This document shows positions 1-11,507 of a stretch of 11,507 bases of DNA, in pieces. This DNA is from a virus (Duplodnaviria; Heunggongvirae; Uroviricota; Caudoviricetes): IMG/VR virus record IMGVR_UViG_2657245521_000005, positions 1-11,507 of that record; one strand, given 5' to 3'. The position numbers and the translations under genes are program-made. The notes under the pieces were generated by a model. It saw only the letters and a list, made by a program, of their open reading frames with translations. It was not told the origin of the DNA and did no database searches. The first letter of the stretch is position 1. Each line of letters begins with the position of its first letter.

Positions 1-584
1 TTTCCCAGTTTAACCAATAACTCATCTCGATTTGGAATCATAAGCGCTTTTCCAGTCAAGCAACGTTTTCTGGTTCCTTGTTCAAGGGATAAAAAAACAG
101 GGTTGTTATTAAGTCTCTCAGTTATTATATCTTTTTGTTCATGATAAAAATCCAATGCTTTCGTATTATCACTAGATGTAAATAACTCAATTCTCTTTAC
201 ACAATCATTCATGTGCATGACATTCAACTTTGCTGACCACTCCTCAGTTGAATCTGGATTCTCAGATAAATACATAAACAATAACTCAGCTTCCAGAATC
301 GCTCTTACATGAGGTGCAATCGCCGAAAAATCCCAAAAGTCATAATCCCGCTTAGCCCATCTTGATTTTGGTACGTTGGAAATCATTATTGAAGCATGAA
401 TGCAGATTCGTGAAAAAATGTATGTAGACCACCCTTTAAAAGCCTCAGCCATTCGCACACCAACCCCCTGACTTACAGCATTCGCTTCACATACAGCTTT
501 ATCAAACTCCCTTAAGTAGTGATGGAAGTCATCCATCGAAAAATCGTTTCGTTCAAGTGGATTTTCGGGATTATCTATTTTCAT
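1..584 (-). CDS. Hypothetical protein, N-terminal 194 codons only (C-terminus beyond window start); AT-rich cargo (moron) gene downstream of Q and its terminator
   Basis: Hand translation of the reverse strand from ATG at 584..582 (MKIDNPENPLERNDFSMDDFHHYLREFDKAVCEA...) stays open for 194 codons to the window edge despite AT-rich composition, where stops are frequent by chance. AGGTGA Shine-Dalgarno lies just upstream. Absent from the supplied ORF track, presumably because no in-window stop exists. No recognisable motif. Confidence 0.6.
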   Translation of the reverse strand, partial: MKIDNPENPLERNDFSMDDFHHYLREFDKAVCEANAVSQGVGVRMAEAFKGWSTYIFSRICIHASIMISNVPKSRWAKRDYDFWDFSAIAPHVRAILEAELLFMYLSENPDSTEEWSAKLNVMHMNDCVKRIELFTSSDNTKALDFYHEQKDIITERLNNNPVFLSLEQGTRKRCLTGKALMIPNRDELLVKLG

Positions 585-633
585 ACTTCACCTATTTAAA
601 ACAATTGGTTTAAATCGGTGAATTATAACGCAA

Positions 634-655
634 AAACCCGCTCATTGGCGGGTTT
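634..655 (-). terminator. Intrinsic terminator-like hairpin (tR'-like) between Q and the cargo gene
   Basis: Minus-strand reading gives AAACCCGC-CAATGA-GCGGGTTT followed by TTGCGTTAT: an 8-bp stem with GC core, 6-nt loop and U-rich tail. The tail is U-rich only on the minus strand, matching the direction of Q and the downstream gene. Confidence 0.45.
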
Positions 656-688
656 ATAAAACTTTGGCAACATATCAAATACGCTTCA

Positions 689-717
689 AATATGGCTTAT
701 TTTGTTGCATTTTGCAA
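689..717 (-). promoter_or_regulatory. Putative late promoter (pR'-like) immediately downstream of Q
   Basis: Minus-strand TTGCAA (717..712), 17-nt spacer, CATATT (694..689). Position between the Q stop (748) and the terminator hairpin matches lambdoid pR'/qut/tR' layout. Sequence match to sigma70 consensus is only moderate. Confidence 0.2.
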
Positions 718-747
718 GCGCGTTTGAAGGAGATAGTGAAATTTACT

Positions 748-1437
748 TCACATTTCTGCCACTTTGAGGGCTTCTTCTTCCTCATAGTATTCAAGAGCCA
801 TTGCCAACGCAGATTCATCAAGCTGGGTAAAAGCGGCCTTTAACCCAGCCCAGTGCCCTGAATAGACACGCAACCATGTCGAACGATCAACGCTAACCAT
901 GCGGGCCAACGCTGCACCAGCATAGTCTTTATAGGTTTCATTATTTCTGGTTGCGGCAATTTCCTGCCCTGCCAGCCATACCAGGCCAATCAGTTTCTTT
1001 ACTACGCGCTCCTGAAGGGAATTATCACCCAGGCATTTCTGATAAGTTTTCCAGACGTATTCACACATCATCACTTGGTGCTTATAGCTAAGGTCAAAAC
1101 CGTAGCAGTACCGCAACCAGGCCTGCTGGTATCCACTAAGCGCGGACACTGCCCTACGCCACGGCGCGGACTCAAATTCCGCATCTTTTATCGGCGGCAT
1201 TGGCCTGCAGCGGCTGCGTGTTTCCAGTACATACAATGGCGCGGAAAGCGAGTTAACAAAGCGAGGCCCCTTCTCTCCTTCGAGTTCGACGAGATGAATT
1301 CCACGGCGCGGGGTGGCATTTTTGTCTGCTGGTGGGTGTTCACTGAAAGCCTCAAGCTGCCCTTTTGTTCCCCCAGAGAGGTCAGGTAGCGCGCGGCGCA
1401 ATTCTATTCTTACAAAATTCAGGTCTTGTTGATTCAT
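748..1437 (-). CDS. Antitermination protein Q-like late-gene regulator
   Basis: ORF 748..1458 begins with GTG abutting the upstream stop; internal ATG at 1437 (MNQQDLNFVRIELRRALPDLSGGTKGQLEAF...) has GGAG upstream and is the preferred start. Assignment rests on recalled resemblance to the 21/82-type Q family and on synteny: last gene of the early operon after the nin-like genes, followed by promoter-like and terminator-like elements and a cargo gene. Confidence 0.55.
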   Translation of the reverse strand: MNQQDLNFVRIELRRALPDLSGGTKGQLEAFSEHPPADKNATPRRGIHLVELEGEKGPRFVNSLSAPLYVLETRSRCRPMPPIKDAEFESAPWRRAVSALSGYQQAWLRYCYGFDLSYKHQVMMCEYVWKTYQKCLGDNSLQERVVKKLIGLVWLAGQEIAATRNNETYKDYAGAALARMVSVDRSTWLRVYSGHWAGLKAAFTQLDESALAMALEYYEEEEALKVAEM

Positions 1438-1458
1438 GCTTCTTTGCGCTCCATACAC

Positions 1459-2487
1459 TTAAGCTTTCGCAATTACGCCGATCGCCAGCGCCCGATCCAT
1501 AAAACGCAGTAGCAGCTCAAGCTGCGTACCATGCTTCTGCTCGAATGCCGATACATCGGCGTGTAACTCGTCGTGGCACTCTCTGCACAGAGGGATCACG
1601 AAGAGGTCATGGGCTTTTGTTGCTGTACCACCCATACCGTGCCCTACGATATGGTGCGGATCATCTGCTGGCCGTCGGCAACACTCACAGGGTTGTGTTT
1701 TTACCCAGCGGGTGTAAGTCTCATTTATCCAGCGGCGTCGCTTTGGCCTGAGCATGAAAGATTCCGGAGACTCCGGATCAACAGAGAGCGTGAGGATCTT
1801 CTTCGCCTTCTCCTGCACGAGGCTGGTTGCAGTAGCGGAAGGCACAATGTCGCTTTCCCTCATGACCGAGCGGATCTTCTCATCCGGAAGGCGTAGCCCC
1901 TTGTGCGCAACGCTTTCCGGAATAACATCAGCCAGGTCGTTTCTGACCATCCACCAGCACAGTTCCGGAAGCGTCAGGATATGCGACTCGGGAAAACCAG
2001 AATCACGCCGAATGACTTCCAGAATCCAGGATACCAGGTTTCCTGCCGCTATACCTGCAAGCCGTTCGGTATGCTGCCCCGACAAAGTGTGATCGCAATG
2101 CCAGCACAGGCGAATACTTCCTGGTGGGTGCCGCATTGTTGTGAAGTTCTTGTCGTGCCACGATGAATGTGGCCACTGGCATTCAAACCGAGAACTCAGC
2201 CACTGCTCAAGGGAAGGAAGTCCACCGGCACGCTGAATAACCCGCTCATTCCCGAAGACCTGCCGCATTACCGGATCATCAGCCAGCGGCTGAATGGCTG
2301 CCGGAACAGCCCCGGTACTGAATGACGCCATTTCTTCTGGTTCAGGCTCGAGCAGAACGCGACCACGCATGAAGAGGTGCATCAGTTTAGCACCGGGACG
2401 GAACAGCACAATCCCCATACGATGGGCGATCTCGGGGGTAAGCAGAGCTCTCACGCGACCTGCCCCCTGGCAATGTGTTCTGCCCAC
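1459..2487 (-). CDS. DUF968/YdfU-like prophage protein with C-terminal HNH-like Cys/His cluster
   Basis: 342-codon ORF directly upstream of Q, as ydfU precedes quuQ in E. coli Qin prophage (recalled synteny). C-terminus carries CECCRRPADDPHHIVGH...CRECHDELH, a CxxC...HH...CxxCH pattern typical of HNH/zinc-finger nuclease folds. Start uncertain: GTG at 2487 (GGTGG SD) overlaps the upstream gene by 37 nt; in-frame ATGs also at 2418, 2382, 2370 and 2331. Confidence 0.5.
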   Translation of the reverse strand: MGRTHCQGAGRVRALLTPEIAHRMGIVLFRPGAKLMHLFMRGRVLLEPEPEEMASFSTGAVPAAIQPLADDPVMRQVFGNERVIQRAGGLPSLEQWLSSRFECQWPHSSWHDKNFTTMRHPPGSIRLCWHCDHTLSGQHTERLAGIAAGNLVSWILEVIRRDSGFPESHILTLPELCWWMVRNDLADVIPESVAHKGLRLPDEKIRSVMRESDIVPSATATSLVQEKAKKILTLSVDPESPESFMLRPKRRRWINETYTRWVKTQPCECCRRPADDPHHIVGHGMGGTATKAHDLFVIPLCRECHDELHADVSAFEQKHGTQLELLLRFMDRALAIGVIAKA

Positions 2488-3134
2488 AGTCCACCAATCC
2501 AGCGCACGCCTTTCGCAGTGAAACGTGCCTGGCTGAATGCATGATTTGAGGTTACGGATGTGCCGGTTTTCACTTCAAAACGGCCCGCATCAATATGCTG
2601 ATACCGTGGGGTCATCGTTCCACCAAGGCGATACATGATGTCGTTCTCAAGGAGGAATAACCGCAGATCTGGCTCTTTTGCCTTAAGCAGTTTTGCCACC
2701 TGGCGGAATGACATTGACCCACTGGCTGTACAGTACCGATCAACAAACGCTACCTTCGGCGCCGCGGCAGCCAGTTCGTTAGTCAACTGCTGTTTTTGTT
2801 CTGCAAGGTCAGCGGCAAGACGTAGGGCTTCAGAGAATGATTGAGGAATCGTCTGCTGCTGTGCCTGCTCAAGCTCCTGCCAGCGATCAACCAGACGCGC
2901 GGTAAACTCCGGCGACAGCTGCGCGACAACGATATAACTGTCCCGCTTCCCTATCAGATAAACCGATACCGACTGATTGAGGTGATTTTTAACTTCCCCC
3001 ATTGGGGGGAGTTCAATAACACCGCGCTCTGCCAGGCGTTCAATGGACCGTTTAACATGGTCATGTCGTGATTCCACCAGCTCAGCAATATCGCTGCTGG
3101 ACATGGTTAATGCTGTTGTTGCTAATTGGCTCAT
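2451..3134 (-). CDS. Phage regulatory protein Rha / antirepressor with KilAC-type C-terminal domain
   Basis: N-terminus MSQLATTALTMSSSDIAELVESRHDHVKRSIERL matches the Rha-type HTH signature (recalled). C-terminal YCTASGSMSFRQVAKLL...DIMYR...RYQHIDAGRFEVK resembles the ANT/KilA-C module. ATG at 3134 with GGAG 9 nt upstream is preferred over the ORF-track start at 3173. Confidence 0.7.
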   Translation of the reverse strand: MSQLATTALTMSSSDIAELVESRHDHVKRSIERLAERGVIELPPMGEVKNHLNQSVSVYLIGKRDSYIVVAQLSPEFTARLVDRWQELEQAQQQTIPQSFSEALRLAADLAEQKQQLTNELAAAAPKVAFVDRYCTASGSMSFRQVAKLLKAKEPDLRLFLLENDIMYRLGGTMTPRYQHIDAGRFEVKTGTSVTSNHAFSQARFTAKGVRWIGGLWAEHIARGQVA

Positions 3135-3147
3135 ACTTTTCTCCATA

Positions 3148-3534
3148 TCAGGCGGCCGCACCCGCCGGTTCATATCTGCTGATCGTTATCTCTACCCGAC
3201 CTTTCGGCACTACGGGTCCCCATTCCACCAGCATGCGCTTAATCTGGCTGTCATCTTCCCAGACACCCGCATGCGTCAGCGCGTCAAACAGGGCTTTGTT
3301 GTAATTATCGATATCCCGGCGGCGCGCATCCGGCGGGTACAGAGTGATTTCTACCGCAGCCAGTTCAGTCGATGGCTTCGGGAGACGTCGTAATTGCTCA
3401 ATGATCGCCACGCAGGCAGCGCTCTGGTATTTACGGCCTTCAGCGCTAATGAGGTGACGACCAGCCAGCGCCCCCTTGTTAGGAGCGCGCCAGTAAGTGT
3501 TCACGCTGGGTGGAAATGGGAGTATGAGCCTCAT
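3148..3534 (-). CDS. rusA: Crossover junction endodeoxyribonuclease RusA (Holliday junction resolvase)
   Basis: 128 aa, MRLILPFPPSVNTYWR...RRRDIDNYNKALFDALTHAGVWEDDSQI... aligns by eye with E. coli RusA including the conserved acidic residues. GGAGG SD 5-6 nt before ATG at 3534. Confidence 0.85.
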   Translation of the reverse strand: MRLILPFPPSVNTYWRAPNKGALAGRHLISAEGRKYQSAACVAIIEQLRRLPKPSTELAAVEITLYPPDARRRDIDNYNKALFDALTHAGVWEDDSQIKRMLVEWGPVVPKGRVEITISRYEPAGAAA

Positions 3535-3648
3535 TAAAAGCCTCCGTCATAATTCCTGAAACATACCTCAACTTTCCCGCTATAGTGACGAACACGTTGA
3601 ACAACATCCGAAATAGGCGCTATACCGGCAGGGCGATAAAAGACTGTT

Positions 3649-4971
3649 TCACGCATGAGTTACCCCCTGCATGCTGTCGACAAGACCACGCGCAATTGTG
3701 ATTATTTCGCTGGTGGACATTCGTTCCAGCCAGAGTTGATTGATGTTGGCTTTCAGCTTGTTCTGCTGTGATTCATCCAGCATGTCAGCACCATCCACCT
3801 GGTCGAATACAATTCCAACCTCCAGTGGCCATATACGGGACTCGGGAAGCTGATCGGCTACTGGTTTAGCTTTCTCACGGATGTGCATGCGGATCTGGCG
3901 AATATTGGACCAACTGGAAACATCCAGGCTTCCCATAGCTGCAATGAAATCAGTACTGTTCATGCCATATTCACCAGATGCTTCAAGGGCAACAGTACGA
4001 ATACGTTCCGACATATCCAGGCGCGCAGCAGCGTCATCGAATTCAATCGACAACAGCCACTCATCCACACCGAGCAAAATACTCTCACGAATAAGCAGCT
4101 TCGCTTTGTCGATCGTTAATGGTGATACCTGAGTGAATTCCGGTGCTTCGACAGAATCCGCCGCCCAGGTATGCCCAAACTTCGATTCACTGAATGTGTA
4201 TTCTTCTTTATCGCCGAACGCAGCTCTAACGCATGCCCACGCCTCAACACCGCTGATATCAAAAATATCTTTCTGGGTAAGTGGCAACTCTGCTTCTGGC
4301 TTGTCAGCTACAGGTGGTGTGGCGGTTGCTGGCTGAGGTTTGCTGGTGGCAAACTGTGCCAAAGCCATAAACGCGCGCCCTTTTGTTTCCAGTTCTGTGC
4401 GGTTGATATAGCTGAATCGCTCGCCACGCCATGACTTATCGAATACAGCTATGGCTCCGGAAAAAAACGCGCTGGTGGGCTTCTGTTTTTCGTCAGCAGG
4501 TACAAACCACACTGGCAGATCGAAACCAATGCGCCCGCGAATGAATACAATGTGATCGGCATCTTCCGGCCACCACGTTTCACTCGGCGCGGCTTTTATC
4601 AGGAATACATAGCGACCGCCCTTCTCGCGCTGGGTTGCTGCGTACTTCATGATGTGCGTCATACCAGTGATCGCCTGTTTCTCGTGGTACTGCGAGCGGC
4701 TATATGGAGGGTTGGCAAAAGCCGCGCCACCCAGTTCTGCCAGACGTTCAGACCAGTCCTGCGTCAGTGCGTTATCTTCGGCGGTGTACCATGCCGGGCA
4801 TTTCGCGTTGTCGTCGTCAGCAAACAAGTCCAGAACTAATGGACCAAATAGCGCGTTGATACCCCAGAAAAGCAGATCCGGTGTCCGCCACTGATCGCCA
4901 ACTTCTTTCAATTCGTGAGCTGGTTTTGAACGCAGTTCGGCCAGCGCGCGGCAGTATTTGTTTTCAATCAT
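3649..4971 (-). CDS. Phage-type DNA N6-adenine methyltransferase (Dam-like) fused to a ~230-aa C-terminal domain of unknown function
   Basis: N-terminal ~190 aa contain WRTPDLLF and the catalytic NPPY motif (FANPPYS) of phage Dam-type MTases. A Pro/Ala/Thr-rich linker (KPQPATATPPVADKPEAE) precedes an unassigned domain. The start ATG overlaps the upstream stop as ATGA (4968..4971), suggesting translational coupling. Confidence 0.75.
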   Translation of the reverse strand: MIENKYCRALAELRSKPAHELKEVGDQWRTPDLLFWGINALFGPLVLDLFADDDNAKCPAWYTAEDNALTQDWSERLAELGGAAFANPPYSRSQYHEKQAITGMTHIMKYAATQREKGGRYVFLIKAAPSETWWPEDADHIVFIRGRIGFDLPVWFVPADEKQKPTSAFFSGAIAVFDKSWRGERFSYINRTELETKGRAFMALAQFATSKPQPATATPPVADKPEAELPLTQKDIFDISGVEAWACVRAAFGDKEEYTFSESKFGHTWAADSVEAPEFTQVSPLTIDKAKLLIRESILLGVDEWLLSIEFDDAAARLDMSERIRTVALEASGEYGMNSTDFIAAMGSLDVSSWSNIRQIRMHIREKAKPVADQLPESRIWPLEVGIVFDQVDGADMLDESQQNKLKANINQLWLERMSTSEIITIARGLVDSMQGVTHA

Positions 4972-5900
4972 CCTCTGAATCCCTCTGGAATTTTGGTATC
5001 TACCGGGCCGAACTTCATCGGGTCATGTTTCTTCTCGCCCCAGCTTTCACGAGGGGGACGGCCTTTCTTATCCCAGCGGAGCCCGCTTTGCAGATAACCC
5101 TCAAATTTTTTCGGCCCAAACAGAGTTTCAGGCCGCATGTACTGATACTGCGCGTCATTGCCGTTCCAGTGTTCATGCTTGAGGTCAATCACCAGCGTTA
5201 AGTCGCTGACGGTATAACCTTCACGCAGACGGGCACGTATGTTTTCCAGAGAGGTTTTAGATTTCTGGTACCGGGAGCCGCTTACCTGGTTCAAATGAGT
5301 TAAAACCAGGATGGCGTTATCAGTGATCAACACCTCAGGGTCTGGTTGCGGCGCAACCGGACAAGAGGGGTTAATGATCTGTTTGTGGTGATCTGAGTAA
5401 TGATCTGTATAGAGAATAGGTTCCGCGACTTCGCGGTTAGGGTTCCGCGATTCTGCGTTTTCGGTTCCGTGATTCTGCGGAATAGGTTCCGCGACTTCGC
5501 GTTTCCCGTTCCGCGATTCTGCGGAATCCAGCGTTGCCGGGAATAAAACATTGATTAGCGCTTCGCCATTGATACGGTAATGCGTCTTTTTCGTGCCGTT
5601 TACCTGTCGCTGCGCCTTTTCAACAACCCCTGGTAGCCAGCGGGTACAAATCTTGTTTACCAGGCGCTGCACCTGATCTTCACTCACGCCGCGAATCTCT
5701 GCCGCAAGCTCGCTGTGCTCTTTATAAAACCAGCCATCATTCAGATCTGATTTACCAGACCAGAACACGAGCTGGTTTAGCACAGCGCCCAAAGCATGCG
5801 CCTGCTGATCGCCGGAGAAATAATCGAGGTACGGGACCGGAATGGTGATGCTATTCCTTTGCCCCGACAGCGATTGAACGATTTCAAATATCTGGCTCAT
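4968..5900 (-). CDS. Replication initiation protein (O-like) with origin iterons embedded in the coding sequence
   Basis: 310-aa ORF. The central linker (SAESRNGKREVAEPIPQNHGTENAESRNPNREVAEPI) is encoded by five tandem dyad-symmetric repeats, as the ori iterons sit inside lambda O. The C-terminal segment (HEHWNG...YMRPETLFGPKKFEGYLQ) resembles the conserved C-terminal domain of prophage replication proteins (recalled). Confidence 0.7.
   Translation of the reverse strand: MSQIFEIVQSLSGQRNSITIPVPYLDYFSGDQQAHALGAVLNQLVFWSGKSDLNDGWFYKEHSELAAEIRGVSEDQVQRLVNKICTRWLPGVVEKAQRQVNGTKKTHYRINGEALINVLFPATLDSAESRNGKREVAEPIPQNHGTENAESRNPNREVAEPILYTDHYSDHHKQIINPSCPVAPQPDPEVLITDNAILVLTHLNQVSGSRYQKSKTSLENIRARLREGYTVSDLTLVIDLKHEHWNGNDAQYQYMRPETLFGPKKFEGYLQSGLRWDKKGRPPRESWGEKKHDPMKFGPVDTKIPEGFRG
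5419..5523. repeat. Five 22-bp-period iterons (GGTTCCGCGAYTYYGCGG-like, each with internal dyad symmetry CCGCGA/TCGCGG); putative replication origin
   Basis: Direct reading: units start at 5419, 5441, 5463, 5485 and 5507. An adjacent stretch on the gene-downstream side (5382..5418) is about 68% AT with two GATC sites (5390, 5402). The ORF 5327..5551 (-) in another frame is just the translation of these repeats. Confidence 0.7.
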
Positions 5901-6069
5901 GATCGTCCGTTATCTCCCTGAACTTTCGCCTGAAATGCTCAAGTGGGCTGAAGCATTCGTGCGGGTAGCCATCACGCAGATAGATAACGCGCTGTGTTTC
6001 AGGTTCCCAGCGGATAACACGGACTGGCACTCCACGGTAGTCTTTGAACCTTCGGTTAAGTTCGCGCAC
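5884..6069 (-). CDS. Small basic hypothetical protein (61 aa) directly upstream of the replication gene
   Basis: GTG start at 6069 with GGAGG 11 nt upstream; 3' end overlaps the replication-gene start by 17 nt. No recognisable motif, so this could be a spurious ORF. Confidence 0.3.
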   Translation of the reverse strand: MRELNRRFKDYRGVPVRVIRWEPETQRVIYLRDGYPHECFSPLEHFRRKFREITDDHEPDI

Positions 6070-6241
6070 AGGCGTTTTGCCCTCCGGTTGTAGACCCCCA
6101 CAATTGAAACCGCCCTACTGTGGTTACACGGAACCCAGCGGTTTGATAATCTGCGTTCATACCGAAACAACGGAGTACCCGAAACAGGGATCATCCTGAG
6201 TTGCGGTAGACGGTTAAAAGCCGTTAAACTATTCATGCGGA

Positions 6242-6790
6242 TTATTTCTCCATACTCGAAGAGTTGTTCGCCAAGGCGCCCGGAGCTGCACACTCGCGGG
6301 CGTCACTCTTTTCTGGAAGGCAGTAAACACGGGCAATCAAATTCAGAAAGGTCATCAGAGTTACCCTGAACTGATATGCAATGTCGTTAAGGCTCTGCCA
6401 CTCACCCTTATCAACAACCCCATCGTCGATATACCAACGGTAAGCGTTGACCAGTTCTCCTAGACGCCCCACCAGCTCGGCCAGCTTTAAGCCAATTTCT
6501 TCGTTTTCGTCATCTGGCACCGCACCCGGAACGTGTATCCCGTTATCTGTTTGACGAGAAAACGCATCAGCTATGTAGCTGACACCGGCGGCTTTCTGTA
6601 ACACCATCGCCCATCCCATAGGGAAGATCTGATCCCCGTCGACGCGAAGGCGGTTAAACAATGCGTTCTCTGTCACCCCCAACCATTCCGCCGCTTCGGC
6701 GTAGCCACCAGGCAGATCGGTAATCGTTTTTTTAATCGCTACCACCAGCCAGGCTGGCTGACGTTCGACTTTCCATTGCGGTTCGTTCAT
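6242..6790 (-). CDS. CII-like phage regulatory protein (HTH-containing)
   Basis: Preferred start is ATG at 6790 (MNEPQWKVERQPAWLVVAIKK...) with GGAG 8 nt upstream; the longer ORF-track start at 6877 adds a low-complexity extension. The segment GGYAEAAEWLGVTENALFNRLR looks like an HTH. Located between cro-like and replication genes as cII is in lambdoid phages. Family assignment from memory only. Confidence 0.5.
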   Translation of the reverse strand: MNEPQWKVERQPAWLVVAIKKTITDLPGGYAEAAEWLGVTENALFNRLRVDGDQIFPMGWAMVLQKAAGVSYIADAFSRQTDNGIHVPGAVPDDENEEIGLKLAELVGRLGELVNAYRWYIDDGVVDKGEWQSLNDIAYQFRVTLMTFLNLIARVYCLPEKSDARECAAPGALANNSSSMEK

Positions 6791-6875
6791 TACTGCAACT
6801 CCATTATTGGCGCCGAACTTCCTGACGGTGATAGCCTGCAAGCTCTCACACCAACAGAACCGAAGGAGGTTCGAC

Positions 6876-7112
6876 ATGTCTGTAAATTCACTGCCTTACG
6901 GCAAGTCTCCCGAAGAAGCCGCTCACGATCTGGCCATGAATCTTGTCTTGTCTGGTCACTTCAAAACATTCCAGAAGTCGCCAGAAGAGGTTTTTCAGTT
7001 GATCACCAATGCAGAACTGGTCTTCAGTGAGCTTTACCGAAACAAACTGAAGGAAATAGAGTCCGCCAGATCAAAAGAAACCGAAGAGCAATATCAACGT
7101 ACGCAGTGCTAG
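6876..7112 (+). CDS. Small hypothetical protein (78 aa) encoded antisense to the early operon
   Basis: Perfect AGGAGG SD at 6864..6869 with 6-nt spacer to ATG 6876. Acidic/helical-looking product (MSVNSLPYGKSPEEAAHDLAMNLVLSGHFKTFQKSPEEVFQ...). Its stop overlaps the stop of the convergent minus-strand ORF at a shared CTAG (7109..7112). Confidence 0.5.
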   Translation: MSVNSLPYGKSPEEAAHDLAMNLVLSGHFKTFQKSPEEVFQLITNAELVFSELYRNKLKEIESARSKETEEQYQRTQC

Positions 7113-7354
7113 CCATGAACAAACGAAAGATAGAACGTTGAATAACCACGGGCGGCGCTTTCAACTGCCGCCTGTATTTCCTCCGCGGATCTCCCTCTAA
7201 GGATCATCTCGTTTATCAGCTCGCCAATAAGGGGAAGGACAATTGGCTGGAATGACATGTAAACCCGCATCTTTCCTTCGGAAATGGTTATTTGTCCTTC
7301 ATCGCTTTTAGCGGTCACGCTGTTTGTATCTTTTGTCTCGCTGCTGTTACCCAC
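7109..7354 (-). CDS. Small hypothetical protein (81 aa) downstream of the cro-like gene
   Basis: GTG start at 7354 preceded by AGGAG with a 6-nt spacer. Co-oriented with the cro-like gene and the early operon. No recognisable motif. Confidence 0.45.
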   Translation of the reverse strand: MGNSSETKDTNSVTAKSDEGQITISEGKMRVYMSFQPIVLPLIGELINEMILRGRSAEEIQAAVESAARGYSTFYLSFVHG

Positions 7355-7383
7355 GGTTAACTCCTCTCTTTTGTGGTTGTTGA

Positions 7384-7626
7384 TTAAGCTGCTGAATCTG
7401 CAGACTTTTGGAAAACATCAGGACGCAGTCTTTCTTTTGGGATGCCAGTAACGCTCTCAATGTACTGAGATTGCTTTATTGGCGACCTTTTTTCTCTGTT
7501 GAGCCAGTTCCATACCTGTTGTTGTTTAACTTCCTTCCCGGAACTTGCAGTTAGTTTCCGGGCTAACTCAGACTGGCCACCAGCAGTTTCAATTGCCTCT
7601 GAAAGGGCTAACTGCTCAGGTGTCAT
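7384..7626 (-). CDS. Cro-like HTH regulator (YdaS-type)
   Basis: Preferred start ATG 7626 (MTPEQLALSEAIETAGGQSELARKL...RLRPDVF) with GGAGA SD and 7-nt spacer. The pattern AIExAGGQSxLAR...ERLRPD resembles the YdaS/Cro-like HTH family (recalled). Divergent from the CI-like repressor across an operator-rich spacer. Confidence 0.7.
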   Translation of the reverse strand: MTPEQLALSEAIETAGGQSELARKLTASSGKEVKQQQVWNWLNREKRSPIKQSQYIESVTGIPKERLRPDVFQKSADSAA

Positions 7627-7763
7627 AGTTTTTCTCCTGTGGTTTGAGGTAAAAGTTGTTGGCACCATTGATCATACAACCTAAACAACTTTTACCACAA
7701 CTTTTAGGTGTTGGAAAGCTAAAACATAAAGTTGTAATCTCTCCTAATACAGGGGGTAAAGTT
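7627..7763. promoter_or_regulatory. Immunity switch (OR-like): operator half-site cluster with divergent pR-like and pRM-like promoters
   Basis: The 8-mer AAAGTTGT occurs at 7652, 7728 and 7758, and its reverse complement ACAACTTT at 7685 and 7697, all within 137 bp. Candidate pR (minus): -35 TTGTGG (7700..7695), 18-bp spacer, -10 TATGAT (7676..7671). Candidate pRM (plus): -35 TTGGAA (7711..7716), 18-bp spacer, -10 TAATCT (7735..7740). Confidence 0.55.
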
Positions 7764-8450
7764 GTGAATACACTTGCGGAACGACTAAAAATAGCTAGAG
7801 AGAAGAAAGGCATGAGCCAGGCTCAGTTAGCCGAGCTAATAGGCCTGTCTCAACAATCTGTGGCGAAAATTGAAAATGGAGATACGCTTCAACCTAGAAA
7901 GATCAAAGATATTGCGAAAGCTTTAGATGTATCCCAAAAATGGCTACAGCTCGGAATTGAGGAGAATGGCTCTATTTCTGATTTTGTAGTTGAGGAACTT
8001 GAAGAAGCAAAACTTGATCCTGAAGTATTTGCCAACATACCCGTTCTCGATGTTGAGTTCTCTGCTGGCAATGGATGTGAAGCCGAAATTGTGGAATCAG
8101 TTGTTGATTCGTTCCCTCTTCGTCGTTTCGATCTTAGAAAAGCTGGAGTCAGTCCTGCTAACGCAAGAATCGTAAAGATTTGGGGCAACAGCCTTTTGCC
8201 AGTATTGAATAATGGGGATCATGTCGCGATTGACATGTCACAGTCGAAACCTATCAGAGATGGTGATTTATACGCTGTTAGAGATGGAGTTTTACTTCGA
8301 GTTAAAGTTCTTATCAATCAACCAGATGGTGGTTTGATACTGCGGAGTTTCAACAAAGAAGAGTACCCGGATGAAGTACTCAACTTTGATGAAAGAAGAG
8401 CCAGAATACACGTTATTGGTCGCGTGTTCTGGTCTTCACGTTCATGGTAG
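7764..8450 (+). CDS. CI-like prophage repressor (HTH_XRE N-terminal domain plus LexA-like S24 autopeptidase domain)
   Basis: Preferred start GTG 7764 (GGGGG SD, 7-nt spacer); the ORF-track start at 7656 would lie inside the operator region. HTH: LAERLKIAREKKGMSQAQLAELIGLSQQSVAKIENGD. Candidate Ala-Gly cleavage site in FSAGNG. S24 motifs: WGNSLLP (Ser) and LLRVKVL (Lys). Confidence 0.85.
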   Translation: MNTLAERLKIAREKKGMSQAQLAELIGLSQQSVAKIENGDTLQPRKIKDIAKALDVSQKWLQLGIEENGSISDFVVEELEEAKLDPEVFANIPVLDVEFSAGNGCEAEIVESVVDSFPLRRFDLRKAGVSPANARIVKIWGNSLLPVLNNGDHVAIDMSQSKPIRDGDLYAVRDGVLLRVKVLINQPDGGLILRSFNKEEYPDEVLNFDERRARIHVIGRVFWSSRSW

Positions 8451-9323
8451 AGCGTGAAAAAGCATTTCTTCTGAAATGATTTTTAACTTAGCCCCTTCAT
8501 CATCTCTATATGAGACTGCTTTTTCTATTTTCCTTCCGTGACTGGAGAACTTCCAGTCACGCGAGGAAAGAGTACCAATTACGAGAAAATCAATTCTCTT
8601 TGTGATTCCGCTGGAAATCAGTCCATTATTCTTTTTAATTAGGTCTTCAACATGTGCTCTCTTTCCTGCCAAAAAAACACCCGTTAAGCAAAATGTTTTA
8701 TTTTCAACAGAAACTTCAGCAGTATTATCTAATGGTAATTTAGTAGAAAGCCCATCTACGACGCCGCTTGCAAGGTCACAACCAGTAAAATCTACCAGCG
8801 CCTTGTGTAGATTTTCACTTTCTTCAGTGGTGATGATCCCATCGCTCAGAATCTCTTTTACTAAAGCGTATAGTTCCTTTCCTGGATAATTACTTTTTAG
8901 CGCCCCGTTCTGTGTTAACCACCAGTCCAGGTATCTCACTTCTTCTTCACTTAAGGTTCGATCTGATATTAAACCCTTGCAAAGACCATTCAACAGATGC
9001 AGATCTGACTCACTGGAGAATAAATCCACATCGGGTATATCGAGTATTTGTCTTTGTATATCATTAAGATGCAGTTTTAATTCACCACGCTCATCATCAG
9101 AAACAACACCATCGGCCAGTATTTTAGAAACCCTAACACTTAGACTCTTGATAACACCATTTCTAATGGTTTGGTTGGCTTCAAGTAGCCAAGTATCAAG
9201 ATATAGCACCTCTTCATCCCGCACATGTCCATCGGCAAGAATCCCATCAATAATGCTGATTAAATTTGCAAAAAGCTTATTTCTATTTTGTGTGTAGTTA
9301 AAAACGTAGAGCTTGTCTTCCAT
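8442..9323 (-). CDS. Hypothetical protein with four TerB-like helical repeats and a C-terminal BRCT-like domain; candidate immunity-region accessory (defence or exclusion) gene
   Basis: Preferred start ATG 9323 (MEDKLYVF...) with AGGAGG SD. Four repeats of I-L-[AS]-D-[GR]-x-[VIL]-x-x-[ED]-E at aa 28, 68, 118 and 158 (ILADGHVRDEE, ILADGVVSDDE, LISDRTLSEEE, ILSDGIITTEE). C-terminal KTFCLTGVFLAGKRAHVEDLIKKNNGLISSGITKRIDFLVIG...KIISEEMLFHAL resembles the BRCT domain of NAD-dependent DNA ligase. Markedly AT-rich relative to flanks; 3' end overlaps the repressor stop by 9 bp. Confidence 0.75.
   Translation of the reverse strand: MEDKLYVFNYTQNRNKLFANLISIIDGILADGHVRDEEVLYLDTWLLEANQTIRNGVIKSLSVRVSKILADGVVSDDERGELKLHLNDIQRQILDIPDVDLFSSESDLHLLNGLCKGLISDRTLSEEEVRYLDWWLTQNGALKSNYPGKELYALVKEILSDGIITTEESENLHKALVDFTGCDLASGVVDGLSTKLPLDNTAEVSVENKTFCLTGVFLAGKRAHVEDLIKKNNGLISSGITKRIDFLVIGTLSSRDWKFSSHGRKIEKAVSYRDDEGAKLKIISEEMLFHALP
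8463..8486 (+). terminator. Weak terminator-like hairpin just after the repressor stop
   Basis: CATTTC-ttct-GAAATG followed by ATTTTTAA. The stem is short and AT-rich, and the element lies inside the 3' end of the convergent gene on the other strand. Confidence 0.2.
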
Positions 9324-9375
9324 ACAGCCTCCTTTTTTGAACATCCTTACATTCAGACGCCCCACAATCAAACCA

Positions 9376-9456
9376 CATAAAGTTGTTGACATAACCATTA
9401 TTCACAACTAAATTACACCTTAAAGTTGTTATTACGATTTACAACATTACAACTAG
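9376..9456. promoter_or_regulatory. Second operator cluster (OL-like) with near-consensus rightward promoter (pL-like)
   Basis: Plus-strand -35 TTGACA (9386..9391), 17-bp spacer, -10 TAAATT (9409..9414). AAAGTTGT at 9379 overlaps the -35 and recurs at 9422 near the predicted start site; ACAAC-type half-sites at 9404, 9441 and 9449. Same 8-mer as in the cI/cro spacer. The divergent promoter for the 8442..9323 gene must also lie here. Confidence 0.5.
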
Positions 9457-9559
9457 CCATAAGCAACAGCGAACAGGCAGGACGCCCACGAAGTAGCCGC
9501 CGGTGGCGTATGAATAACCGGATGATTCGCTCAATAAAGTTAGGTAGGGGAATTTCACG

Positions 9560-9772
9560 ATGAATGCAGCACAACGCCGAAGGGCTTATCACAAACACCC
9601 GAAAGTTGGGGACACTGTAATTTTACGAGGCATTCCTCGCCTAGTACTGGGTCCGTGTACGTTCAACAGCCTTACTGGCGAAGAGCGTAGCAAACCTTCG
9701 GTAAGCCGTGTCAGGGTTCAAATGACTGGCGGCTCAACAGCTGCACCACTCGTACGTAATTTAAAGTTTTAG
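9560..9772 (+). CDS. Candidate small N-like protein with N-terminal arginine-rich motif (speculative)
   Basis: First ORF after the pL-like promoter, 70 aa. N-terminus MNAAQRRRAYHKHPK resembles the arginine-rich RNA-binding motif of lambda N (DAQTRRRERRAEKQ, recalled). Upstream CGCTCAATAAA is a weak boxA-like match. SD is poor (GGGG about 10 nt upstream). Could be non-coding. Confidence 0.3.
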   Translation: MNAAQRRRAYHKHPKVGDTVILRGIPRLVLGPCTFNSLTGEERSKPSVSRVRVQMTGGSTAAPLVRNLKF

Positions 9773-10558
9773 CGATAAACAGGTGTCTTCGGGAGGGGTT
9801 ACGGGCTGGAGTGACTACCAGCATCGACAGCTCTATCCGACGAAACGGAACCGTCTAACCCGCGGTTGTCGGTGAAAAGTACCGTAGGGATGCCAGCTAG
9901 TCACTGGCCCCCGCCCGAAGATACCTACCACCGCGCCTGATGTGGTTAAAAGCAGGCCAAAGCAATAACAAGTACTTCCCTGTTCTGGCGGCCCGGTGTT
10001 TTCCCACTTGTCCGGTCACCGCCAGCCTTTTTCAGGGCACAACGACGAGAGCATTGACGAGCAAGGCATAAGTGCTGGTTCGATTCCAGACAGTCCCATT
10101 CTGTTGGGAGGGTTGGGCAGGGAAAAGGTTCGTTCGATTCGAACACCGGCAGTGCTCTCTTCGTTGTGGTGAATGCGCAGGCTGATGCGCTAAACCGTGA
10201 GGGAGTGTCCCGAAAGGGTGCGTCACTGGTAATCAACCCATGCCGGAATATCGTAGTACCGGCCACCACAACCAAATCACGCTTAGGACCGTGATAACCG
10301 TAGTTCCAGTATTGCTGTGTGTAGTCTTGGCGGTACCAGGGTCTTCAACCTTATGCAAGGGGGACGAAGATAATGTTCTACCTCGGTACCGCCCTTTTTA
10401 CGCAACAGAAAAGGGCATCACCGGGCGACGGGCTCATAACCCAATCCACCCTGGCAAAAGACAGCGGTCTCTGCAAGCCGCCGACCAATGCAGGTGTCCT
10501 TCTCTGTTGTGTATGGAGAAAACACGGCGGTGGAAGCCGCCTTAACGAGGGTAAAACC
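9773..10558 (+). other. GC-rich ORF-poor transcribed leader; candidate structured non-coding RNA or decayed gene remnant
   Basis: Hand translation of all three plus frames from 9781 to 10240 gives a stop every 20-65 codons; track ORFs on both strands are short, overlapping and of junk-like composition. Contains GC-clamped hairpins (CUUCGG 9787..9792; CCC-GAAA-GGG 10209..10218), a palindromic GTTCGATTCGAAC (10131..10143) and a G3N1G3N2G3N2G3 motif (10106..10122). Confidence 0.3.
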
Positions 10559-10930
10559 ATGAGTAATGACCGCATGACCGTAGTGCCAGATTTTCTTGGC
10601 GAACTGGATGCCGGCGTGTTCATGAACAAAATCGCGGCAGCACTTAATACCACCGCGCTTGGCGTTCTGAACAATGGCAACAAAGGCAAAGTAGTCCTCA
10701 CCTTTGATTTTGAGCGTATGGGTAATTCCGTTGAAGAGAAGCGCGTGAAGATCAAGCACAAGCTGAACTACAGCACCCCGACACCGCGTGGTAAAGCCTC
10801 CGAAGAGGACACAACCGAAACCCCTATGTGGGTTAACAAAGGCGGGAAGCTCACCATCCTGCAGGAAGACCAGGGCAACTTGTTTACCCTCGGCGGGGAT
10901 CCGGACGGAAAGTTACGCGCGGCGAAATAA
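10559..10930 (+). CDS. Hypothetical protein (123 aa)
   Basis: ATG 10559 with GAGGG SD and 7-nt spacer (MSNDRMTVVPDFLGELDAGVFMNKIAAALN...). The ORF-track start at 10373 adds a Cys/Trp/Gly-rich junk-like extension and is rejected. No family recognised. Confidence 0.55.
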   Translation: MSNDRMTVVPDFLGELDAGVFMNKIAAALNTTALGVLNNGNKGKVVLTFDFERMGNSVEEKRVKIKHKLNYSTPTPRGKASEEDTTETPMWVNKGGKLTILQEDQGNLFTLGGDPDGKLRAAK

Positions 10931-10987
10931 GCCGCGATTGATAGCCCTTAGTTTCAGTTTTTCTACATCTATCTTTAAGGAATTTTT

Positions 10988-11425
10988 ATGTCTCAGTTAG
11001 ACAGCGGTACCTTCAAGCAGGTCAAAGACCTGGTTCTTTCCGGTTATCACCTGAATGATATTCATGGCCTGGCTTGCCCGACCGCATTACTGCCAGAGGG
11101 TACTGGCGTTGAAAGCCTCGAGCGTTTTTCTCTGGAGCGTTTCCGCTTCCGCGGTGCCATGACCACGACCAGCATTGAAGATTTTGCTCGTTATTCAAAA
11201 GGCTATGCCAGCGCCACTGAAAAAGCACGCTGCTTTATTGACGCTGACCATATGACAGCCCGTTCAGTATTCAACATTGGCACACTCGATAACCCCGGTC
11301 ATGCGGACAATGTTGCATCCATCACCCTAAAACAGACCGCACCATTCCGTGCTCTTCTCCAGATCAACGGTGAACGTCTGAAACAAAAACAGATCGCCGA
11401 GTGGCTGGAAGACTGGAGCGATTAA
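10988..11425 (+). CDS. Hypothetical prophage protein (145 aa)
   Basis: ATG 10988 with AGGA SD and 7-nt spacer; coding-like composition (MSQLDSGTFKQVKDLVLSGYHLNDIHGLACPTALLPEGTG...). A vague recollection of DUF2303/YfdQ-like prophage proteins is not strong enough to name it. Confidence 0.6.
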   Translation: MSQLDSGTFKQVKDLVLSGYHLNDIHGLACPTALLPEGTGVESLERFSLERFRFRGAMTTTSIEDFARYSKGYASATEKARCFIDADHMTARSVFNIGTLDNPGHADNVASITLKQTAPFRALLQINGERLKQKQIAEWLEDWSD

Positions 11426-11507
11426 CCGGAAATCAGCATGACAGGATGCGGGACTTTGATCCGGACAGCCCCGAAATAAAATTCAGTGATCGCAGGGCAG
11501 CCCTTGA

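Follow-up and report, generated by a model that had tools for sequence, protein, structure and literature searches.

What use does a temperate phage make of a stand-alone BRCT protein whose gene is fastened to the end of its repressor gene? The question is raised by a stretch of 11,507 nucleotides from a virus of the Caudoviricetes (IMG/VR record IMGVR_UViG_2657245521_000005, positions 1 to 11,507), the whole of which is called here the window. At 8442-9323, on the minus strand, the window carries an open reading frame (ORF) for a protein of 293 amino acids, which we call the BRCT gene. An earlier sequence-only reading, made from the letters and a list of ORFs, had placed it in the slot between the repressor gene and the left operators (OL) with the early-left promoter (pL), and this position was confirmed (cI at 7764-8450, operators at 9372-9429, pL-like promoter at 9386-9414). 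The BRCT gene is genuine and protein-coding, and it is accessory in the prophage that carries it, a lambdoid (CPS-53/yfd-type) one of Citrobacter. The identical protein is found in a prophage inserted beside icd, and its nearest named relatives, with 97-98% identity, belong to Citrobacter koseri. It is best described as immunity-region accessory cargo of an undescribed architecture, with an unusual and conserved docking to the repressor gene. The features on which this description depends are the following.

8442-9323, minus strand: BRCT accessory gene, 293 amino acids, with two TerB-like units and a BRCT domain (ORF list and sequence)
9328-9332, minus strand: Shine-Dalgarno sequence GGAGG of the BRCT gene, 4 nt 5′ of its ATG, kept in all relatives examined
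7764-8450, plus strand: cI-type repressor gene with HTH_3 and Peptidase_S24 domains, 228 amino acids from a GTG (Pfam)

The reading frame runs from an ATG at 9323 to a TGA at 8444-8442, and the ORF with its consensus Shine-Dalgarno sequence (GGAGG at 9332-9328) was found as previously described. A reading of 318 amino acids from an ATG at 9398 was rejected as unlikely; the shorter one is preferred because the close homologues (n = 471) are 292 to 297 amino acids long and because a conserved promoter lies downstream of 9398, inside the extension. The PHROG 3989 profile matches the protein over nearly its full length (E = 1.5e-114, residues 2-292 on profile positions 2-292 of 296), and the database category of this PHROG is "unknown function". 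Homologues are labelled "BRCT domain-containing protein" by the Prokaryotic Genome Annotation Pipeline (PGAP), or "NAD-dependent DNA ligase". The GTG start of cI was set by E. coli orthologues of 228 amino acids.

The two genes are convergent, and their 3′ ends overlap by 9 bp, as had been noted from the sequence (cI stop TAG at 8448-8450, BRCT gene stop TGA at 8444-8442). This contact turned out to be the rule: every phage-borne homologue found adjoins a repressor gene at the latter's 3′ end. A convergent cI homologue accompanies the gene in each of the 80 IMG/VR loci retrieved, which come from enterobacterial prophages and have 72-100% identity; the overlap is 9 bp in 42 of them, 18 bp in 30 and 15 bp in 7, and a single locus has a 28-bp gap. 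E. coli has the convergent arrangement too, and so do Serratia, Providencia and Rosenbergiella, at identities down to 54%. More distant phages carry the gene in the other orientation. In Vibrio phage K139 the homologue orf2 is co-directional with cI and directly 3′ of it, in the annotated lysogenic operon cI-orf2-glo-int, and co-directional homologues immediately follow the repressor gene in Pseudomonas phage Marin, in P2-like prophages of Vibrio, Oceanimonas and Aliivibrio, and in prophages of Arhodomonas, Ectothiorhodospiraceae and Colwellia. Among the partner repressors there are two unrelated kinds, S24 and 186-type CI; what the gene is linked to is thus the lysogenic transcription unit, rather than S24 chemistry. 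Because K139-type phages pair it with a 186-type CI, less weight was also given to a direct role in S24 autocleavage.

In the enterobacterial set cro, cI and the BRCT gene co-diverge, and the neighbouring cII-like gene is swapped. For example, in loci L001, L002, L016, L017, L018 and L023 the BRCT protein is 87, 75, 77, 73, 55 and 54% identical to that of the window, and cI is 91, 80, 71, 57, 61 and 67% identical, respectively. Base composition gives the same grouping. The guanine-cytosine (GC) content is 38.7% in the BRCT ORF, 42.4% in cI and 40.8% in the whole cro-cI-BRCT-OL module (7384-9559), against 52% in both flanks, and GC at third codon positions is 32-34% in cI and in the BRCT gene alike. 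The low GC of the ORF had been singled out by the sequence-only reading; the ORF is low indeed, but so are cI and the entire module, and the ORF is therefore not distinctive by itself. Thus, cro-cI-BRCT is a co-inherited low-GC immunity module, and this module (7384-9559) appears to come, as one unit, from a lower-GC source.

Within the module the BRCT gene is optional. The cI family of the window is present in 68 of 5426 complete E. coli genomes, and in a spread sample of these rows a BRCT gene overlaps the end of cI in 21 of 30 (about 70%). Prophages lacking it, with near-identical cI (L095, L096), either have a ClpX-type zinc-finger gene in the slot, along with a small hypothetical gene, or leave it empty. 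As the same cI family does without the gene in about 30% of E. coli prophages, the gene is accessory and is not needed by the switch. Its company in the slot includes glo (exclusion) in K139 and GmrSD, HEPN and methyltransferase genes in Oceanimonas. A separate case is Sulfurimonas phage SNW-1 (L005), in which a short-form homologue annotated "DNA polymerase" (3929-4552) is divergent from a cII-like gene and occupies the expected position of the repressor gene; no repressor is annotated nearby, and a thermonuclease gene comes next.

The protein was modelled by AlphaFold2 with a mean predicted local distance difference test score (pLDDT) of 85, and divides into the following parts.

9039-9296, minus strand: helical unit A, residues 10-95, with motifs ILADGHVRDEE and ILADGVVSDDE (duplication, BLASTP E = 1e-10)
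8784-9026, minus strand: helical unit B, residues 100-180, with motifs LISDRTLSEEE and ILSDGIITTEE
8709-8783, minus strand: acidic linker, residues 181-205 (pLDDT below 50 for residues 185-194)
8445-8708, minus strand: BRCT domain, residues 206-293, basic, isoelectric point (pI) 9.4, with T214, G215, R222, W257 and K265 invariant or nearly so

The motif [IL][LI]x[DN]Gx[IV]xxxE (ILxDGxIxxxE) occurs at residues 28, 68, 118 and 158, and its D together with the E seven residues on are kept in 57 to 72 of 72 diverse homologues at each of the four sites. The four motifs make up two duplicated units of about 85 residues (10-92 against 100-182, BLASTP E = 1e-10, 33% identity), of which unit B is the one kept in short relatives of about 210 amino acids. 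Modelled separately, the N-terminal half gave nine helices with a pLDDT of 90 and a predicted template modelling score of 0.87. The C-terminal domain shows the alpha/beta BRCT fold, and Pfam PF00533 (BRCT) matches residues 207-266 with 25.8 bits against a gathering cut-off of 21.3 (E = 1.2e-5); it also matches 64 of the 72 relatives. The architecture of four repeats and a C-terminal BRCT domain, recognized by eye beforehand, therefore holds, with four motifs and a Pfam score above gathering.

The earlier qualification of the repeats as TerB-like was only partly sustained. The motif is there four times and Pfam TerB (PF05099) matches 12 of 72 relatives (best 9.5e-5), with DUF533 matching 3 of 72 and a few matches to EF-hand models, but the window protein itself has no TerB match at E ≤ 0.1 and a profile search of PDB sequences found no TerB. 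What it would share with TerB proteins, such as tellurite-resistance TerB and Shango SngA, is a repeated acidic [AS]-D-G-x-I-x3-E on helical hairpins. The N-terminal half may thus be called TerB-like by motif only, each unit having two D-x7-E motifs of a TerB/EF-hand-like kind. A Shango system (SngABC) was ruled out, as there is no ATPase/helicase gene nearby and the neighbours are cI and early-left phage genes.

For the BRCT domain, the family profile found, among PDB sequences, the BRCT domains of RFC1 (3e-8) and LigA (about 1e-6), and the nearest solved structures are BRCT domains of replication and repair proteins. In the HMMER alignment T214, G215 and R222 stand opposite T415, G416 and R423 of RFC1, the residues reported, in the 2K7F work, to have a role in 5′-phosphate binding. 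Conservation among the 72 relatives is nearly complete at these positions (T214 70, G215 70, R222 72) and at K265 (72). As judged from its sequence, the domain is of the RFC1/LigA class, which binds 5′-phosphorylated DNA ends or nicks, and it has the conserved residues of the predicted phosphate pocket, S/T-G behind strand 1 and a basic residue. It differs from the RFC1 and LigA domains by an extra insert, S-R-D-W-x3-S-x-G-R-K, with invariant W257 and K265, and the protein lacks the clamp-loader and ligase catalytic domains of RFC1 p140 and LigA. Domain searches detected no enzymatic domain in it. Charge is unevenly distributed, the N-terminal half being acidic (net about -14, pI 4.6), like the linker, and the BRCT domain basic (pI 9.4). 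The linker, although disordered in the model, has a short family-wide motif, G..F..TG...G..(S)T..(F/L)...D, which resembles a putative short linear binding motif. There is no hydrophobic segment (maximum Kyte-Doolittle 19-residue mean 1.09) and, with no predicted membrane-spanning segment, the protein is probably cytoplasmic; a membrane-associated exclusion of the SieB/RexB type was ruled out on this basis.

Several database names could be set aside. LigA models match only by their last 55 residues or so, with 14-25 bits against cut-offs of 369-1051, and the N-terminal 180 residues, a helical repeat, also contradict a LigA identity. The NCBIfam epsilon-like exonuclease model matches through the BRCT end only and far below its cut-off. 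Since only the BRCT part matches, the ligase label is wrong, and the label "DNA polymerase III epsilon" was rejected as well. The PADLOC candidate PDC-S48, a DEDDh exonuclease fusion, was the only PADLOC model to match the window protein (E = 5.5e-5, and down to 8e-10 for relatives). They have one TerB-like unit and the BRCT domain in common (profile positions 239-377 of 411), but PDC-S48 has an N-terminal DEDDh (RNase T/epsilon-like) exonuclease which is absent here. In the true members P0187 and P0269 the exonuclease part is matched, at about 1e-21, and the window protein matches only the non-catalytic C-terminal part, and a PDC-S48 identity was thus ruled out. Foldseek against viral structures returned only the BRCT parts of ligases and nothing matching the whole architecture.

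The sequence-only reading had not recognized this architecture as a described phage system. In the literature searched (prophage, defence, TerB, K139 orf2 and PDC-S48 angles) we found no functional study of the family, in line with the category of PHROG 3989, and to this extent the claim stands; the proteins themselves are not new, since homologues such as K139 Orf2 and phage Kappa kp3 have long been in databases. Both are full-length homologues, that of K139 with 31.6% identity over 96% of the protein. K139 Orf2 is like the window protein in its architecture and its gene likewise adjoins the repressor gene. However, K139 is a P2-like phage with a 186-type CI in which the gene is co-directional inside the lysogenic operon, whereas the prophage of the window is lambdoid, its cI is S24-type and convergent with the gene, and the gene has a candidate promoter of its own at OL.

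How the gene could be expressed depends on the operators and promoters around it, which are listed here together with the other genes and signals of the immunity region.

6242-6877, minus strand: CII/YmfL-like gene (Pfam)
7384-7626, minus strand: YdaS/Cro-like gene, cro (Pfam)
7652-7765: right operator (OR) region, with five copies of the operator 8-mer AAAGTTGT, between cro and cI
8351-8381, minus strand: terminator-like hairpin and U-run (UUCUUUGUUG) for the BRCT transcript, antisense within the cI codons EYPDEVL (terminator scan)
9343-9371, minus strand: candidate promoter of the BRCT gene, with -35 TTGATT (9371-9366), a 17-nt spacer, TG (9351-9350) and -10 AAGGAT (9348-9343) (phylogenetic footprint)
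9372-9386: operator-like 15-bp palindrome, ACCACATAAAGTTGT on the plus strand and ACAACTTTATGTGGT on the strand of the BRCT gene (8-mer enrichment)
9386-9414, plus strand: pL-like promoter TTGACA-17-TAAATT (promoter scan, 10 of 12 positions; conserved in the alignment)
9415-9429: second OL operator-like site, ACACCTTAAAGTTGT, which extends over the predicted pL start

Seven copies of the 8-mer AAAGTTGT are present in the window, where 0.56 would be expected, and all of them lie at 7652-7765 (OR) and 9379-9429 (OL). The operator at 9372-9386 sits exactly between the -35 element of the BRCT gene promoter and that of pL, which points away from the BRCT gene into the early-left genes; it is invariant among relatives, and the palindrome is perfect in Providencia and in one variant. 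A consensus promoter scanner made no call at the BRCT gene promoter, which emerged solely from the comparison of relatives. In 50 distinct upstream sequences from the IMG/VR loci the operator is directly followed by TTGATT or TTGAAC at 9371-9366, and then by a spacer which is constant in length (17 nt) and variable in sequence. TG-n-AAGGAT (9351-9343) is exact in 46 of the 50, the other 4 having one-base variants of the -10 element, and 3′ of it come a few variable nucleotides, an A-run and GGAGG. The Providencia relatives keep the operator, TTGATT and AAGGAT around a 17-nt spacer of unrelated sequence. This layout is the predicted footprint of a real promoter and, with its -10 element at 9348-9343, the transcript would start near 9336.

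From the positions of the hexamers, the centre of the operator (9379) falls at about -43 relative to the BRCT gene promoter and at -42 relative to pL, with about 85 bp between the two starts. In lambda, cI at OR2 activates PRM with this geometry. In common with OR2-PRM there is a weak promoter whose -35 element abuts an operator at about -43, back-to-back with a strong lytic promoter some 85 bp off; the differences are that the arrangement lies here at OL, that it serves an accessory gene rather than cI, and that activation by the repressor of the window is inferred. Given this geometry, the repressor that silences pL could activate the BRCT gene. A comparison with lambda rexA-rexB is also apt. 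They occupy the same slot from the repressor gene to OL/pL, both are accessory to the switch, and lysogen expression, known for rexAB, which is co-transcribed with cI, would apply to the BRCT gene as well. Nevertheless, the two have no sequence similarity, and the BRCT gene differs by its soluble product, its orientation opposite to cI and its separate candidate promoter.

At the other end of the gene, the terminator-like hairpin lies 60-90 nt beyond the stop codon and is kept in about 32 of 38 distinct enterobacterial sequences. One variant has GTAT/ATAC in place of GTAC/GTAC, with both arms altered, and cI pays for it with a V-to-I substitution; this suggests that the hairpin is under dual coding and RNA constraints. 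Transcriptional interference of the BRCT gene with cI, which had been raised from the convergent layout, is possible; with the terminator embedded in cI the antisense overlap, if termination occurs there, would be confined to about the last 100 nt of cI. Another structure was observed at 8529-8569, an inverted repeat with arms of 18 nt (about -26 kcal/mol) in the part of the BRCT coding sequence that is most conserved (SSRDWKFSSHGRK). It lies 80-120 nt beyond the cI stop, and relatives have it in a weaker form. This repeat could follow from the peptide sequence as a by-product, or serve as a pause or processing site for the cI transcript.

The family reaches far beyond phages. An exhaustive HMMER search of 1.84 billion representatives gave 2675 clusters (at 50% identity) at E ≤ 1e-3 and about 1500 at E ≤ 1e-10, in two main forms, of about 295 amino acids (two units and BRCT) and about 210 amino acids (one unit and BRCT). 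With one genome taken per species, profile searches showed no repressor or integrase near about 60 of 80 homologues. Moreover, in 41 of 66 chromosomal-type loci, which belong to Pseudohongiella, SAR86 and related marine Gammaproteobacteria, the surroundings are conserved and the divergent neighbour is the same. Homologues outside prophage immunity regions had been named by the sequence-only reading as evidence that would refute it, and this refutation applies in part: the phage-borne homologues all lie beside a repressor gene, but in the majority of species the gene is chromosomal. In the chromosomal form (L012, L013 and 39 other loci) the divergent neighbour encodes a protein of about 515 amino acids with a CPTC thioredoxin-like motif and no Pfam family, and a small membrane protein is also encoded in the conserved neighbourhood of the marine Gammaproteobacteria; these two proteins could be functional partners of the chromosomal form.

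The module also occurs in fusions. It is joined to a DEDDh exonuclease in P0187 and P0269, to the helix-hairpin-helix (HhH)-BRCT end of LigA in P0151, and to extra BRCT domains in others. In P0236 it is carried by a superfamily 1 helicase of 2042 amino acids with an MTES_1575 restriction-endonuclease-type domain and DUF3320, which matches the models of PDC-S37, Mokosh MkoA/MkoC and Hhe.

Regarding function, our preferred reading, which we consider possible rather than probable, is that the BRCT protein is a lysogen-expressed binder of DNA ends or nicks which acts on incoming DNA, as a superinfection exclusion or defence factor. The gene is probably expressed in the lysogen; it would be transcribed from its own weak promoter, and repressor bound at the OL operator (about -43) would shut off pL and could simultaneously switch the BRCT gene on. 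The analogy with PRM suggests such lysogen expression, which fits the distant relatives of K139 type, where the gene is co-transcribed 3′ of cI. The step from expression to function is the weakest part. The BRCT domain would bind 5′-phosphorylated ends or nicks, and the acidic repeats may gate or tune this binding, by binding a metal or a ligand or by intramolecular masking of the basic BRCT surface, with the linker motif as a possible partner-binding or autoinhibitory peptide. The prophage would benefit by interfering, without an enzymatic effector, with incoming or competing DNA that exposes ends or nicks; possible routes are the capping of ends against ligation or circularization, or the recruitment of host nucleases. 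Action against incoming DNA is favoured because of the slot, the company found in it, the optional presence of the gene and the occurrence of the same module on nuclease-bearing defence candidates.

Several observations weigh on the other side. The chromosomal majority (about 60 of 80 species-level homologues outside prophages, 41 of 66 chromosomal-type loci syntenic) argues against a dedicated defence role, and its pattern looks like that of a vertically inherited cellular gene and not of patchy defence cargo. The protein has no effector domain, no phenotype for the family was found in the literature, and the PADLOC match is limited to the shared C-terminal module of PDC-S48, itself only a candidate. 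Activation by cI is deduced from geometry, and bound repressor could equally repress, which would make the BRCT gene an early gene. Similarly, DNA-end binding is deduced from homology, and single BRCT domains also bind proteins.

These points leave room for other explanations. The protein could modulate the lysis-lysogeny switch by sensing DNA damage and tuning prophage induction, including spontaneous induction. It would sense gaps or nicks with 5′-phosphate junctions, the substrate on which RecFOR loads RecA, and would either compete there or act on the repressor or antirepressor pathway. In its favour are the strict docking next to the repressor gene, seen in either of two orientations and across unrelated phage lineages, the co-divergence of cro, cI and the BRCT gene, the convergent 3′ overlap with a terminator embedded in cI, a BRCT domain of the DNA-end-binding class, and the SNW-1 homologue placed at the expected repressor position, divergent from cII. 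For Roseobacter prophages, a 2026 preprint (PMC13345283) counts cI and BRCT genes as regulatory modules presumed to respond to DNA damage, although this statement is a passing, annotation-based suggestion. We nevertheless hold an effect on the switch to be somewhat unlikely: about 30% of E. coli prophages with the same cI family manage without the BRCT gene, no repressor partner accompanies the chromosomal homologues, and with partners of both S24 and 186 type a direct effect on S24 autocleavage is unlikely.

The chromosomal homologues would instead be accounted for if the protein were a borrowed cellular scaffold of DNA maintenance, which marks nicks or ends and recruits or assists a ligase, a clamp or an exonuclease, for the general fitness of the lysogen or for the replication or integration of phage DNA. 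Most members of the family are chromosomal, with synteny across Pseudohongiella, SAR86 and related marine Gammaproteobacteria; fusions join the module to an epsilon-like exonuclease, to the HhH-BRCT part of LigA and to extra BRCT domains; and the closest solved structures are replication and repair BRCT domains. But phage copies lie only in the lysogenic/immunity slot and not in the replication module, the gene is optional among otherwise similar prophages, and the chromosomal copies have no conserved repair-gene neighbours; we hold such a role to be distinctly unlikely. Very improbable, finally, is an anti-defence decoy, that is, an effector-less copy of the targeting module of nuclease-type defence systems which would occupy DNA ends, nicks or a ligand and so protect phage DNA. 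In PDC-S48 the window protein does match nothing but the non-catalytic C-terminal module, which a Mokosh/Hhe-like helicase-nuclease also carries; the predicted lysogen-type expression, with co-transcription with cI in relatives, fits a lysogenic function better, and the syntenic chromosomal copies do not fit a decoy.

Other features of the window were observed beside those of the BRCT gene. The first early-left gene (ATG 9560) is preceded by a non-coding leader of about 85 nt (9464-9550), which is found with 86-97% identity in 1380 of 5426 complete E. coli genomes without conservation of its flanks, and also in the unrelated phages ST64B, SfV, SfII, ZF40, YeP1-3 and phiNP. It contains a boxA-like CGCTCAATAA and has no stable predicted fold (z = 0.57). 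Rfam gave no RNA family in the whole window at gathering thresholds, nor in 9300-9700 at E ≤ 1. On the other side of the immunity region, five to six tandem 22-bp iterons (GGTTCCGCGAyTyyGCG core) lie at 5414-5545 within a replication-initiator-like gene (4968-5900), and, by analogy with lambda O, presumably form the origin of the prophage. The left end of the window (1-750), beyond a Q-like antiterminator gene (748-1458), is again low in GC (34-40%). This second tract has no complete ORF inside the window, and may be another cargo region.

The strict 3′-end linkage in two orientations, the co-inherited module, the candidate promoter sharing an OL operator with pL, the terminator-like hairpin inside cI and the split between chromosomal and phage forms are the elements which are new here. 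Functions that serve the lysogen, for example rexAB, are kept by temperate phages in the slot beside the repressor gene. Here the occupant of the slot belongs to a very large family (about 1500 clusters at E ≤ 1e-10), often mislabelled as DNA ligase, and its linkage to the repressor gene is unusually strict across lambdoid and P2-like phages. Should no phenotype be found, the BRCT gene would count as a conserved hypothetical moron of the ordinary kind. For its part, the repressor-activated promoter predicted at OL is a piece of switch architecture that can be tested directly.

If the protein does read DNA ends or nicks, this would be a new sensing principle for prophage exclusion or induction control, and would account for the attachment of this module to nucleases in candidate defence proteins. 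A wider proposal, doubtful but far from negligible in our opinion, is that stand-alone TerB-like/BRCT proteins form an unrecognized class of lysogeny-linked factors. They would be non-enzymatic sensors of DNA ends or nicks hard-wired to the repressor gene in several temperate phage lineages, the enterobacterial form being activated by the repressor from a PRM-like promoter at OL, and would exclude superinfecting DNA or feed DNA-damage information to the lysis-lysogeny decision. If this were true, the protein would be the first free bacterial BRCT domain to serve as an immune or regulatory reader of DNA ends.

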